Shown here piece by piece: positions 837-4,550 of a stretch of 64,000 nt of DNA. The position numbers were made by a program, and so were the translations under genes. Source of the stretch: Promethearchaeota archaeon (GTDB taxonomy: Archaea > Asgardarchaeota > Lokiarchaeia > Sigyniarchaeales > SOKP01); NCBI GenBank assembly GCA_019057795.1, contig JAHLWS010000049.1, positions 1-64,000 of the forward strand, given 5' to 3'. Below the pieces are notes generated by a model. The model ran no database searches. It was not told the origin of the DNA and worked only from the letters and a program-made list of their open reading frames with translations. The first letter of the stretch is position 1, and the number at the start of each line of letters is the position of its first letter.

Positions 837-2231
837 ATGTCAAAAAAAAATGAAAAACTTAACCCAACTCGAGAATTACCAATAAGCCTTCAGGGGATTG
901 AAACAATTTTACAATATTTAGGCAAAGAAGAAAAGATTCCATCAAGCATTCGAAATATAGGCGAACATACGGGTCTTTCTATGAGAGTAGTGAAAAATAT
1001 CCTGCTCCAATTAGAAAAATTTAATCAAGTGGAAAGAGTTATTGAAAAAAATAATATCCTTCCTAAATGGAGGATCACAAAATTCGGAAAAAGGGTAATA
1101 AAGGAAGTAAGAGGAATAGAAAATAACATAAAATTTCCAAGCAGAGAAGACGAATTAGTCTACAAAGTTAATATCCCTACAAAAATTGAACAACTAAGAG
1201 ACGAGGGTAAAATAAAACAAGAATCAATTATTACTGAATTAAATTCATTGCAAATTGATTTAAGTAAAACTCTTGGGCCGATAATTAACGCTAACAACCC
1301 TATTTTTGAAGATCTAATAGGTTTAATGATAAAAAGAGTTAAATTCCTCAGACAAAAAGTCGCAAATTTCCCCGTAGATCCCGTAGCAGGATTTACATTG
1401 AAAAAAATGGATGAAAAGAAGAAAAAAATCTCGAAAGAAGAAGGAAAGTTGCTTCTCGTAGAAATTTACTTTTTCTATTCAATTATCCTAAATGAATTAA
1501 AAAGAATAGCTGAATTTGTTGACAAATTGACACAATTTGTAGAGAATGAAGCAATATCAAATGGTTATTCTGTTGCAAAAGATTTAAGAGATGAAATAAG
1601 AATTCTTACCAACTTATTAAATCAACGAGAGTCTTTAACGGTAAATAAGCATAAAATTTCCGAAGAAGAATTAAAACAAATCTCGAAAGGTAATATTAAC
1701 CCCAGAATTTTACAACAACTAATTGGACCTTCCATAAGCGAGGAAGCACGGAGTGGAGCAATTGAAGAATTCGTTCTAAAAATAATAGAAAGTATAAATA
1801 AAGGAACTTTACAATTAGAAGACCACAATTACGACATAAAGGAAAATATACCCATAATATCGTTATATAACCTCATTTTAGATGAAAAACCTGGCTTGAA
1901 TTTTACAATCGAACAATTGGAGCAAATTATTAATTCTCTTGCAGATGAGGGATATATTCCGGGGATAAATATCATTCAGGAGGACGAAGATCATTATCTG
2001 AAAGTTGTCCAATTAAAAACACATAATATATCTGAAGATGAGTCGAAGTTAATTTCATATTCACTTAAAGTTGAGAAATTCTCTCTTGTAGATATCGTTG
2101 ATAAATTTAATTGGAGCACTGAAAAAGGTCTTCAGATGCTAGATAACCTAACATCCCTTGGTATATTAAAACATTCAAAATCATATTTGTACGGAGATCA
2201 ATGGTATGTAGTATCTGAATTTAATAATTAA
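837..2231 (+). CDS. N-terminal winged-HTH, helical middle, and C-terminal ESCRT-II Vps22/Vps36 (EAP30)-like tandem winged-helix protein
   Basis: N-terminal SIRNIGEHTGLSMRVVKNILLQLEK HTH. The C-terminus VVQLKTHNISEDESKLI...FSLVDIVDKFNWSTEKGLQMLDNLTSLGIL...GDQWY fits the EAP30 pattern (vvqs.p.els.D...il; l...lgWs.era...L..l...G). Confidence 0.65.
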   Translation: MSKKNEKLNPTRELPISLQGIETILQYLGKEEKIPSSIRNIGEHTGLSMRVVKNILLQLEKFNQVERVIEKNNILPKWRITKFGKRVIKEVRGIENNIKFPSREDELVYKVNIPTKIEQLRDEGKIKQESIITELNSLQIDLSKTLGPIINANNPIFEDLIGLMIKRVKFLRQKVANFPVDPVAGFTLKKMDEKKKKISKEEGKLLLVEIYFFYSIILNELKRIAEFVDKLTQFVENEAISNGYSVAKDLRDEIRILTNLLNQRESLTVNKHKISEEELKQISKGNINPRILQQLIGPSISEEARSGAIEEFVLKIIESINKGTLQLEDHNYDIKENIPIISLYNLILDEKPGLNFTIEQLEQIINSLADEGYIPGINIIQEDEDHYLKVVQLKTHNISEDESKLISYSLKVEKFSLVDIVDKFNWSTEKGLQMLDNLTSLGILKHSKSYLYGDQWYVVSEFNN

Positions 2232-2263
2232 TTTAATCATAAAATAAAATAATTTAATCAAAG

Positions 2264-3406
2264 GTGAAAAAATTGTATAAAGAAATAAAAAATATGAAAA
2301 CGAAGGATTTTGACCCTAAAATAATTTCCTGGCAAAGAGAAGATAAAGGTAGCTTAGATACTCCTTTAATGTATGTATATCCCCAACCCGGAGATAACAT
2401 TAAAGAAAAAAAGTTTTTCGTGGTTAAAGATTATGAGAAAGCACTTTTTTATAACAAAGGAGTGTTAGTTGATGTACTTGGAGGGGGGGTGTATGAAATT
2501 GATAAGAGGGCGAAAGTGAAGGGCACCGAAATCGTATGGATTGATACATCTTTTGTCGAAATACAATGGGGAGTACCACAAACAAGTGGTATCCCCACAA
2601 AAGATGGTAAAATTATCGGACTTCATGGTAATTTAAAACTTCGAATAAATGATGTTAAAAAGTTTTATAACGATGTCGTAGCAGGTAAAAAGATATGGAC
2701 GGGAAATGATCTAAAGGGATGGATTATCAGTCTTTTACATACTTCCTTAAGGGATGTCTTCAAAAATTATACAGCAAAAAATGTAATTTTGGAGGAACAT
2801 GATAGAGTAATAACGCTTCTAACTTCTAAGATTACTGATGAATTTGTAAGTTATGGTCTTGATCTTGAAACTTTTTATGTTATAGGTATAAAAAGTTCTG
2901 AAGGCATGGAACAATTGTATAAACTTGAGAAAGAGAAGGCAAGTATAGCTGACGAATTAGAGCTGTTAAAGGTGAAAGGAGAGTTAGAAGCTCAAAAAGT
3001 GGATATGGATGCTGTTAGAAAAGCTCGTGAGCGCCAAGAACAAATATTAGATGCAACATCAGACATAGAAAAGACGAAATTAATAACTGAAGCAAAAAAA
3101 ATGGAAGGTGCTGTAGTGATGGACTTATTAGAGAGAGAAGAAAAAGCAAGAGTTGCTGGAGATGTAAAAATTATCGAAACCGCTGGTGATAAAGAAATAA
3201 AAATTGCCGAAATGCAAGTAGAAAGCGAAAAAAATGAAAAAATTAAAAGAAAGGTAATTAAACAAGAAATTGCTGACTTGAAGGAAAAACTAAATAGCTT
3301 CGATGACTTGTTAGCTGAAGGAAAAATATCTGAAGATGTATATAAAATGAGAATCAGTCGAATTGAAAAGGAACTGATAAATTTGGAAAAAAATCTTATA
3401 GATTAA
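2264..3406 (+). CDS. SPFH/band-7 (YdjI-like) protein with coiled coil and C-terminal SHOCT-like domain
   Basis: VVKDYEKALFYNKG...GGVYEI, IQWGVP, HGNLKLRIND and YGLDLETFYVIGI are SPFH motifs. Charged coiled coil follows. C-terminal LNSFDDLLAEGKISEDVYK is SHOCT-like. Start codon uncertain. Confidence 0.8.
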   Translation: MKKLYKEIKNMKTKDFDPKIISWQREDKGSLDTPLMYVYPQPGDNIKEKKFFVVKDYEKALFYNKGVLVDVLGGGVYEIDKRAKVKGTEIVWIDTSFVEIQWGVPQTSGIPTKDGKIIGLHGNLKLRINDVKKFYNDVVAGKKIWTGNDLKGWIISLLHTSLRDVFKNYTAKNVILEEHDRVITLLTSKITDEFVSYGLDLETFYVIGIKSSEGMEQLYKLEKEKASIADELELLKVKGELEAQKVDMDAVRKARERQEQILDATSDIEKTKLITEAKKMEGAVVMDLLEREEKARVAGDVKIIETAGDKEIKIAEMQVESEKNEKIKRKVIKQEIADLKEKLNSFDDLLAEGKISEDVYKMRISRIEKELINLEKNLID

Positions 3407-3467
3407 ATATTTTTTTTTATTTTAAATCAATTTTATTTTAATTCAAGAAATAAAAATTTGGATAGAA

Positions 3468-4550
3468 ATGAAAACCTATAAATTAATCCCCCAATTTCGC
3501 GATAATTGTGTCATCCAAGGAAAGAAAGATTGGCTGTTAGAATATCAAATAGGGGATACAATTTTTCTTATTTCAAGTCAACCAAGCAAAAAATATTCTA
3601 TTATCACCAAAATTGAGGCGTTGGAATTTAACGAAAATCCTAGAATTCTTGTTGATAAAAGAAATTTAGAGGAATTTGGGGAAAATGATGAAGTTTATAT
3701 CTTAAAATATAATCCCGCTGAAGCTATAGAAGTCCATATTAATATATCAAACGAGTTTAGGATTATAACTAGAGGTGATTGGACTTCAAATATTAAACCT
3801 TCCTTACTAAATAAACTTATAGATGTAGGACAAGAAGTATCGTTCTTGATCCCTTGGGAAGGTGGTGCCCCCATCATAGGTTCAGGAATTATAAATTACA
3901 CGCTACCTAATCCACCTGTATATATAGGGGAGCGCACTCGCATTTTTTTAGATAAATCATCAAATGAGGAACTATCCAAAATTAAATTGGATAATATAAC
4001 AAGGAAAAAAGATCGTGTGGCCATTTTAGAAAAACAAATAAAACAAAACACTATTGAATTTATTAGGAAAATTAAGCATGAAAATTACCCCAATAAAGGA
4101 CAAAAATACCAATTTAAAGCAACTAACCCTAGACAATTATTTAATTCAATTTTAACTATTTTTAAGGGTTTAGAACCTATTGAGGATCCCAACGAACAAT
4201 TCTTCGATGTCAAAGAACAGGACTATCTAGCTACAGCCGTGTTTTTGAATAAGCAAAATCATGATGGCTTTAAGTTAATTGATGTTCAAATCATGTCAAG
4301 TGAGAATTCTGGGACTTTAATAGTCTGGGTAACGGGTGAGAGTGAATCTATCATATCGGAAACTTTAAGAAGATATGATTTAAAAATCTCTGAATTAAAG
4401 CAAGGATTAGAACAAAGAGTTGAAGTAATAAGTGCTCAATGTCCTGAATGCGGTGGAGATTTGCCTATAAAGAATATTGATATGAATGGAATAATAGAAT
4501 GTGTTTTTTGTAATAAAACCTCAAAAATTCCAAAAGCATTAAGATATTAA
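3468..4550 (+). CDS. Cdc48/p97 N-domain-like protein without an AAA ATPase module; C-terminal zinc ribbon
   Basis: PAEAIEVHI...IKPSLLNKLIDVGQEVSF...IINYTLPNPPVYIGERTRIFL resembles the CDC48_2 subdomain. No Walker motifs. Ends with CPECGG...CVFCN. Confidence 0.6.
   Translation: MKTYKLIPQFRDNCVIQGKKDWLLEYQIGDTIFLISSQPSKKYSIITKIEALEFNENPRILVDKRNLEEFGENDEVYILKYNPAEAIEVHINISNEFRIITRGDWTSNIKPSLLNKLIDVGQEVSFLIPWEGGAPIIGSGIINYTLPNPPVYIGERTRIFLDKSSNEELSKIKLDNITRKKDRVAILEKQIKQNTIEFIRKIKHENYPNKGQKYQFKATNPRQLFNSILTIFKGLEPIEDPNEQFFDVKEQDYLATAVFLNKQNHDGFKLIDVQIMSSENSGTLIVWVTGESESIISETLRRYDLKISELKQGLEQRVEVISAQCPECGGDLPIKNIDMNGIIECVFCNKTSKIPKALRY

Follow-up and report, generated by a model that had tools for sequence, protein, structure and literature searches.

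A UFM1-type tagging cluster with ESCRT-II-like, SPFH and Cdc48-N-like partners in a Lokiarchaeial genome

Gene organization of the cluster

In the window analysed in this study (64,000 nucleotides [nt], positions 1 to 64,000 of the forward strand of contig JAHLWS010000049.1, assembly GCA_019057795.1, from a Promethearchaeota archaeon of the class Lokiarchaeia), eight genes, all on the plus strand in the open reading frame (ORF) listing, were observed to fill positions 837-8443. They combine a protein-tagging core, classed as UFM1-type, with genes for an ESCRT-II-like protein (g1), an SPFH protein (g2), a Cdc48-N-like protein (g3) and a membrane protein (g8) that belongs to a family of candidate adaptors. 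The cluster is best explained as an optional, modular Asgard tagging system; its likeliest role, in which we have moderate confidence, is a stress or antiviral (conflict) response and not housekeeping quality control. This role is suggested by the patchy spread of the system, by its remnants, by variants with TIR, HEPN or SIR2 domains, and by a g1 tree that breaks genus groups. The genes of the cluster, together with the convergent neighbour g9, are as follows.

837..2231, plus strand: g1, EAP30/ESCRT-II-like protein of 464 aa, with a MarR-like winged helix-turn-helix (wHTH; about 16-91), a helical region (117-321) and a tandem winged helix (WH; 337-460)
2264..3406, plus strand: g2, with an SPFH/Band 7 domain (about 37-217) and a long C-terminal coiled coil
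3468..4550, plus strand: g3, 360 aa, with a Cdc48/p97-N-like domain (1-170), a long helix, a helix-grip-like alpha/beta domain (204-318) and a C-terminal Zn ribbon
4561..5394, plus strand: activating enzyme (E1) of the UBA5 type, with Pfam ThiF at 1.5e-54 and a conserved C-terminal helix ELDDFINNMKEE
5405..6607, plus strand: JAB/MPN+ metalloprotease with a helical C-terminal domain of about 260 aa; mechanical start TTG 5489 (ORF 5489-6607)
6672..6938, plus strand: ubiquitin-like (Ubl) modifier of 88 aa, ending in ...IIDRGIVG directly before the stop codon
6935..7480, plus strand: UFC1-like conjugating enzyme (E2), overlapping the Ubl stop by 4 nt
7568..8443, plus strand: g8, with a double Zn ribbon (Pfam DZR), about 4 transmembrane (TM) segments and a cytoplasmic C-terminal PCI-type winged helix (cWH)
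8570..9409, minus strand: g9, paralogue of g8 and convergent with it, with 2 TM segments and two copies of the cWH

The intergenic gaps across 837-8443 are, in order, 32, 61, 10, 94, 64, -4 and 87 nt. The initial annotation had described these genes as lying on one strand with gaps under 90 nt, which agreed with the strand and spacing of the ORF listing except for a single gap, the 94 nt between E1 and JAB, an artefact of the mechanical start call. From 5384 onward the JAB frame is open, and the residues upstream of the called start, including the segment with the catalytic Glu, align with those of orthologues; no ATG, GTG or TTG occurs in this upstream stretch (window 5384-5491). Translation probably starts at ATA 5405, behind AGGTGG, the alternative being a sequencing error. 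With the true start at 5405, the gap between E1 and JAB would shrink to about 10 nt.

Exactly two copies each of g1, g2, g3, JAB, Ubl and E2 were found in the genome, all within two module loci, one on contig C49 (the window) and the other at C77:46548-60254. A search of sequencing runs listed no RNA run that contains the locus. In four DNA metagenome runs, only related strains of 90-97% identity were detected at the locus, and short-sided joints were not trusted. Downstream (3') of the module, a thioredoxin-like gene and a 685-aa gene (window 9802-12486) mark a chromosomal position that is common to loci L006, L020 and L024.

The UFM1-type tagging core

In phmmer searches against PDB, the E1 matched UBA5 at 4.7e-49 (170.6 bits), the next family being MoeB at 2.8e-24 (89 bits). 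A profile of the E2 matched UFC1 entries only (E 1.1e-6). Pfam UFC1 was matched by all 15 of the 15 E2 orthologues, with a best value of 4.1e-7, and the E2 of the window scored 22.6 bits against a cut-off of 25. A near-invariant Cys in the MICHEH motif of the E2 is probably its catalytic residue. The Ubl is mature as encoded, with a single C-terminal Gly after Val and the stop codon next in most of the 15 aligned orthologues, and its Val-Gly end is conserved in that alignment; an Atlas look-up returned generic Ubl clusters only. With UBA5 as the closest match of the E1, UFC1 as the sole match of the E2 and a VG end on the Ubl, the downstream module is, as judged from sequence, UFM1-type. Earlier work had found UFC1 and UFM1 only in eukaryotes (PMC10183829), and Asgard Ufm1 homologues were reported later from structure, in a text that is without UFC1, UBA5, UFL1 or DDRGK1 (PMC12962969).

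The protease of the cluster is of the JAB/MPN+ type, matching Pfam Prok-JAB at 2.5e-4 in the window protein and at 8.6e-10 in the orthologue at L021; neither a UFSP-type cysteine protease nor a UFL1-like protein was found in the cluster. Fusions of Ubl and E2 with 270-273 aa were found in six other genomes, and in many genomes the two form a single ORF of 258-278 aa (L010:9687-10478, L011:4140-4931, L013:6283-7086, L017:3096-3893, L018:9696-10499, L019:9684-10502, L047, L048 and L051). Such fusions must be cut to release the C-terminal Gly of the Ubl, presumably by the JAB encoded alongside. Single-linkage clustering joined Ubl with E2 and also g1 with g3, and both joins were traced to real fusion proteins.

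Linkage of the upstream genes to the core

Around the E2 genes of Lokiarchaeia, the order g3-E1-JAB-Ubl-E2 was invariant, with g3 always directly 5' of E1 and never parted from it. The order of g1 and g2 was likewise invariant, g2 lying directly 3' of g1 in all loci. This pair was found upstream of the core, divergent from it or downstream of it in 18 Lokiarchaeial genomes, as follows.

g1-g2 upstream, same strand: window, L007, L008, L010, L011, L032, L037 and the second copy in this genome
g1-g2 divergently upstream: L006, L009, L016
g1-g2 downstream of E2: L003, L012, L013, L018, L019, L020, L002

Its recurrence in many genomes means that this arrangement is no chance neighbourhood. In another Asgard family (two closed genomes) and in Heimdallarchaeota-labelled metagenome-assembled genomes, the gene order is E2, a protein of 344-350 aa and then an SPFH protein of 215 aa. 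The protein that follows E2 in the Heimdall-labelled loci scored 34.2 bits with Pfam EAP30, above the cut-off, in a 345-aa example, and a g3-like gene lies 2-5 kb away in these loci; the linkage holds at 23-35% identity. In Lokiarchaeum ossiferum, a g3-like N-terminal part and an EAP30-like C-terminus are united in one protein. This variant (L021 / L073, CP104013.1:1030235-1050768), which has the fusion, JAB and E1 on one strand and Ubl-E2 divergent, adjoins ABC/FtsX-type genes and is without a separate g1-g2 pair.

The three gene orders, the occurrence in a second deep lineage and the g3/EAP30 fusion make a functional link between the upstream genes and the tagging core very likely. The proposal, first made from the window, that g1 to g3 belong with the E1, E2 and modifier genes was thus borne out in relatives, both by the three Lokiarchaeial orders and by the Heimdall-labelled genomes.

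About ten genomes, two of them closed, carry g1-g2 without a detectable core. At these core-less loci (L026-L036), large and variable proteins are encoded 3' of g2, including a NosD beta-helix protein with TM segments, FG-GAP/PQQ propellers, TPR/HEAT proteins and proteins of no known type. The neighbourhoods of the pair suggest that it has client or sensor proteins of its own. In the window, the spacer between g2 and g3 (3407..3467, plus strand) has a T9 run right after the g2 stop and is then AT-rich; it is a possible archaeal terminator or internal promoter, which would part the g1-g2 unit from the core. Such a boundary fits with g1-g2 being a movable unit.

Proteins encoded by g1, g2 and g3

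The AF2 model of g1 (pLDDT 81.6) displayed an N-terminal wHTH, a helical part and two C-terminal winged helices. Its best PDB match in Foldseek was human ESCRT-II SNF8 (E 7e-4), followed by VPS36 and yeast Vps22. In hhalign, the g1 profile matched the EAP30 protein of the same genome (Prob 95.9, E 5.3e-9, 120 columns), and both proteins have the end G.QWY..S; the canonical EAP30 gene is located at G000:C38:81599-82255, on another contig than the module. Pfam EAP30 did not match the g1 of the window itself in the Pfam scan, and a divergent g1 member reached 26.1 bits against the cut-off of 26.8. The tandem winged-helix homology to EAP30 was found in g1, which is classed as a distinct paralogue in the ESCRT-II EAP30 family and not as the canonical subunit. 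A wide VIA search with g1 was filled by its N-terminal wHTH and was uninformative on the remaining protein. Genes for Vps25, ESCRT-I, ESCRT-III and Vps4 were absent from all of the roughly 50 loci examined. A reading of g1 as a UFL1-like ligase (E3) with multiple winged helices was dropped, UFL1 being outside the top 50 Foldseek matches and the profile search giving SNF8.

Both Band_7 (1.6e-9, 38.5 bits, cut-off 23.6) and Band_7_1 (2.6e-9, 37.5 bits, cut-off 24) of Pfam were matched by g2, and no match among PDB sequences was found at E 0.1. A hydropathy scan showed no TM segment in g2, and hence no membrane anchor as in stomatin, HflK/C and prohibitin; in that respect g2 is like the cytosolic SPFH proteins of the YdjI/SamI type.

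In the AF2 model of g3 (pLDDT 85.2), residues 1-170 form a complete two-lobed Cdc48/p97 N domain with a double-psi beta-barrel and a second beta-barrel (Foldseek E 3e-8, TMt 0.68-0.70). VIA aligned 157 residues of this domain with p97 (Z 12.3, rmsd 3.5) and also matched it to the related N domains of PEX1, NSF, VAT and UFD1 (Z 9.7-11.7), and it matched the helix-grip-like domain to Bet v1/AHSA1-like folds (Z 10-11.5). The C-terminus bears an invariant IPKxLRY in the alignment. Neither the Pfam scan nor the AF2 model showed an AAA+ D1/D2 domain in g3, and a search for longer fused forms found none. The ESCRT-II-like, SPFH and Cdc48-N folds that the initial annotation had assigned to the three upstream genes were therefore all correct, by hhalign and Foldseek for g1, Pfam Band_7 for g2, and Foldseek and VIA for g3. 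No specific family for g1, g2, g3 or g8 was found in PADLOC and NCBIfam.

An adaptor family predicted to dock the E2

The C-terminal domains of g8 and g9 are 46% identical. The cWH domain was defined as the last roughly 75 residues of these proteins, and a hidden Markov model built from it detected 14 ORFs in the 4.95-Mb genome, of which 10 were strong matches, all inside the two module loci. Family members lie beside or between core genes in at least nine Lokiarchaeial loci and also in Heimdall-labelled loci (window 7568-9409; G000:C77:48785-65216, covering L001 and L040; L008, L009, L010, L011, L016, L019, L031, L043 and L044). Their N-terminal parts are varied, consisting of LRR, TPR, HEAT, WD40, SBBP propeller or Cdc48-N domains, or of a Zn ribbon with TM segments. 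According to the TM scan, about half are membrane proteins with a cytoplasmic cWH and the rest are soluble; TM-anchored adaptors occur at five or six loci besides this window. No cWH gene was found beside Ubl-less g1-g2 pairs without a trace of the core, the exception being L031, a decayed locus that keeps g3 fragments. This adaptor family, interleaved with a Ubl core, is new here.

Against PDB, the best match of the cWH profile was a DDRGK1-UFL1 fusion (8.7e-5, a sum across four weak WH repeats), followed by the PCI subunits eIF3e, eIF3m, CSN2 and Rpn5. A conserved helix (SDVIEFIDNLLNKFNEWEKDE in g8), with Ile, Leu and Trp among its conserved residues, closes the domain and has the same hydrophobic pattern as the E1 tail ELDDFINNMKEE. 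Modelling of the E2 with the g8 cWH gave an ipSAE of 0.86 in 3 runs, the best control being 0.00; 58 of 80 solved complexes attained this mark, as did 2 of 110 mismatched pairs. At least 90% of contacts agreed between runs, and partner pLDDT was at least 81. The modelled contacts place the terminal helix of g8 against E2 residues 35-67, and this helix, at the interface, holds the only invariant or near-invariant residues of the cWH family. The C-terminal helix of the adaptors is thus predicted to dock the E2.

The C-termini of JAB orthologues (e.g. window 6500-6607) share the motif hydrophobic-x-x-hydrophobic-x-x-x-F-x-W. It resembles the putative E2-docking helix of the adaptors and the E1 tail, and the protease may use the same surface of the E2.

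The initial annotation placed the system at the membrane. For this window the idea is favoured by g8 and g9, TM proteins that end in a cWH with predicted E2 docking, and the soluble LRR, TPR and WD40 adaptors of other genomes speak against a housekeeping reading.

Distribution, decay and effector-domain variants

The E2 was detected in 24 of 161 genomes of the class, in 5 of 41 genomes of the same genus and in 36 of 400 genomes of a phylum sample. It was not found in about 85% of the class genomes, many of them 95-100% complete and including a closed genome of 4.4 Mb. Two genomes keep just a broken 3' piece of E2 with stop codons (L024 [G149:C2] 9998-10144 and L023 [G158:C9] 9937-10119); the flanks of the L024 remnant match the intact locus L006, indicating loss at a syntenic site. 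Isolated fragments of the first 30-34 residues of g3 were found at L031 (G138:C96) 15898-17669 and at G000:C77:51773-51874.

At L037 (G146:C372, 352-2253 and 3247-4860), a g1 with a C-terminal Swt1-like HEPN domain and a g3 with an N-terminal TIR domain occur together, and the locus also carries g2, E1, JAB and Ubl. At L022:9631-12324 (minus strand; G059:C100), an 897-aa protein fuses SIR2-like, TPR and UFC1-like E2 parts and lies next to a 1534-aa SMC-like ATPase (L022:3970-8574, plus strand); no E1, Ubl or JAB was found near this fusion. On the g1 tree, the rows of the window genus require 4 label changes, and well-supported branches force at least 2 of these. The g1 of the window and that of the second copy fall into different supported clades, so the two did not arise by recent duplication.

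Proposed working of the system

The system would have three parts. The first is the UFM1-type core, made up of g3, the UBA5-like E1, the JAB protease, the Ubl ending in VG and the UFC1-like E2. The second is the g1-g2 unit, an EAP30-like protein with a putative cytosolic SPFH scaffold, which is usually attached to the core and can exist alone. The third would be a variable set of adaptors with a terminal PCI-type winged helix. By homology to UBA5 and UFC1, the E1 would activate the ready-made Ubl and pass it to an E2 recruited by the C-terminal helix of the E1. Once charged, the E2 is predicted to dock on an adaptor, at a C-terminal helix that resembles that of the E1. Both adaptors of this window are membrane proteins, which would put the tagging at the membrane; the LRR, TPR, WD40, HEAT and beta-propeller adaptors elsewhere would select other targets, in the manner of scaffold-type E3s such as UFL1/DDRGK1. 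Given its fold and its fixed place before E1, g3 probably binds the Ubl or the tagged protein through its Cdc48-N-like domain. By analogy with ESCRT-II and with YdjI/SamI, which links PspA to the membrane, the g1-g2 unit may provide the output or scaffold on the membrane side. JAB would take off the tag and would have to free the Ubl where this is fused to E2.

Role of the cluster and alternative explanations

Several observations weigh against a conflict or stress system of this make-up. The TIR, HEPN and SIR2 fusions are a minority of the variants, and the location of several loci at one syntenic position, marked by the thioredoxin-like and 685-aa genes, fits vertical descent with loss as well as mobility. 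A physiological pathway that cells can do without would likewise fit the patchy but ancient distribution. No relatives of E2 or g1 were found on viral contigs. PADLOC gave generic E1-domain matches only (3e-17 and weaker) and a JAB match of 0.025. On the side of the mechanism, no significant sequence match was found between the Ubl and UFM1, and the roles suggested for g1, g2 and g3 are fold analogies only. The docking model may echo the UBA5-UFC1 and UFL1-UFC1 complexes already solved, reflecting likeness and not binding. Adaptors of the cWH family are absent from about half of the loci (e.g. L006, L012, L013, L018 and L020) and so cannot be the sole route to targets.

Housekeeping membrane proteostasis or sorting is the strongest alternative. 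The Ubl would tag membrane proteins or stalled complexes, the EAP30-like and SPFH proteins would sort or corral them and the Cdc48-N-like protein would read the tag, the whole being an archaeal forerunner of UFMylation associated with the endoplasmic reticulum (ER). Eukaryote-like parts (UBA5/UFC1-type enzymes, EAP30 homology, SPFH and the Cdc48 N domain) argue for such a role, as do the TM-anchored adaptors with their DDRGK1-like architecture and a DDRGK1-UFL1 fusion as best PDB match, the published contextual links of ESCRT to both SPFH and ubiquitin in archaea (PMC10936438), and the presence of the cluster in both Loki- and Heimdall-labelled lineages. We nevertheless regard it as unlikely, given the many class genomes in which no E2 was found, the decayed copies, the soluble LRR, TPR, WD40 or HEAT proteins that make up half of the adaptors, the TIR, HEPN and SIR2 fusions, the canonical ESCRT-II gene elsewhere in the genome, and the two divergent copies in one genome. 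Of the membrane quality-control operon first proposed for these genes, the gene identities and the linkage therefore stand, but its housekeeping reading is opposed by the presence in 24 of 161 genomes, the remnants, the core-less g1-g2 pairs and the TIR/HEPN/SIR2 variants.

That g1 is mainly a DNA-binding regulator of its neighbours, with SPFH and core co-regulated and no common machinery, seems improbable. Its N-terminal domain does match MarR-, PadR- and Z-alpha-type wHTH folds (VIA Z about 12) and has invariant basic residues in the putative recognition helix and wing. Against a regulator stand about 370 further conserved residues of g1, including the EAP30-type tandem WH, the 345-aa EAP30 protein at the equivalent Heimdall-labelled position, and the fusion of the EAP30 part to g3 (L. 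ossiferum) or to a HEPN effector, which is atypical of a plain repressor.

A mere neighbourhood of the three upstream genes with the module, by chance or local synteny, might be read from the T9 run and AT-rich spacer, from g1-g2 occurring alone in about 10 genomes and from the synteny of close relatives, but it is very improbable, being contradicted by three gene orders that keep the units adjacent, by the linkage in another Asgard lineage at such low identity, by the g3/EAP30 fusion, by g3 never being parted from E1 in Lokiarchaeia and by both copies in the genome keeping all parts.

Comparison with known systems

The cluster resembles the eukaryotic UFM1 pathway in its E1 closest to UBA5, its E2 matching UFC1 only and its modifier ending in Val-Gly. 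The short C-terminal helix of the E1 is like the UFC1-binding tail of UBA5, and the membrane anchor and PCI-type winged helix of the adaptors recall DDRGK1. UFC1 complexes with the UBA5 tail and with UFL1 have already been solved; the adaptor helix is predicted to lie on the N-terminal helix region of the E2, the site reported for UBA5 and UFL1 on UFC1. Unlike the eukaryotic pathway, the cluster has a JAB metalloenzyme in place of the UFSP1/2 cysteine protease, its modifier is made mature or fused to E2, and no UFL1 or CDK5RAP3 orthologue was found in it. Moreover, the adaptors here are many and swappable (LRR, TPR, WD40, HEAT, TM), and the system is optional and patchy. To our knowledge, a Cdc48-N-like Zn-ribbon protein, an EAP30-like protein and an SPFH protein are not known as fixed partners in UFMylation.

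With Bil (Ubl/E2/JAB/E1) and type II CBASS (Cap2/Cap3), the cluster shares the four-part set of E1, E2, JAB and Ubl and a patchy distribution, and TIR, HEPN or SIR2-type effector domains accompany some of its variants. It differs in that its E1 and E2 are of the UBA5/UFC1 type, PADLOC models matching the generic E1 fold only, and in that neither Bil nor CBASS includes g1, g2, g3 or the PCI-WH adaptors. PADLOC returned no match for g1, g2, g3 or g8, and its own models for Bil and CBASS Cap2/3 were not matched. We know of no defence phenotype for an Asgard UFM1-type system.

A link between ESCRT and ubiquitin in Asgard archaea has been published (PMC9192718; PMC10936438), and a contextual link between SPFH and ESCRT has been reported in archaea (Makarova 2024, PMC10936438). 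As in the Asgard ubiquitin-ESCRT clusters (Hatano 2022, PMC9192718), an EAP30-family protein is encoded here beside a Ubl conjugation system. In contrast to those clusters, g1 is a distinct paralogue whose N-terminus has a wHTH and a helical part of its own, Vps25, ESCRT-I, ESCRT-III and Vps4 are lacking at the loci, and the modifier system is UFM1-type and not ubiquitin-type. Published accounts of Bacillus subtilis PspA-YdjGHI (SamGHI) describe, similarly, a TM-less cytosolic SPFH protein of the Band_7_1 type that acts at the membrane together with partners bearing Zn ribbons and TM segments (PMC13713150; PMC10936438). This system differs in that no PspA/ESCRT-III gene is present in the cluster, where the partners are an ESCRT-II-like protein and a Ubl system, and the homology is limited to the SPFH domain. 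A literature search found no paper on this UFM1-type cluster or its adaptors.

Significance

The cluster is a complete UFM1-type set of E1, E2, Ubl and protease, found in Loki- and Heimdall-labelled genomes, with conserved partners and an adaptor family predicted to dock the E2. Only tentatively, the archaeal forerunner of the entire UFMylation machinery, E3 logic included, may be preserved in it: swappable receptors (TM, LRR, TPR, WD40), a DDRGK1/UFL1-like PCI winged helix, an E2-docking helix mimicking the tail of the E1, a reader with a Cdc48-N-like domain and a membrane response by the ESCRT-II/SPFH unit. Eukaryotic UFMylation at the ER would then have descended from Asgard immune or stress tagging. 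The cluster bears on the role of UFMylation before the ER existed and on the origin of scaffold-type E3s. The presence of a variant in the cultured Lokiarchaeum ossiferum (CP104013.1) brings biochemical and cell-biological tests within reach. If the cluster is an immune or stress module, it would represent a new class of prokaryotic Ubl-based defence.

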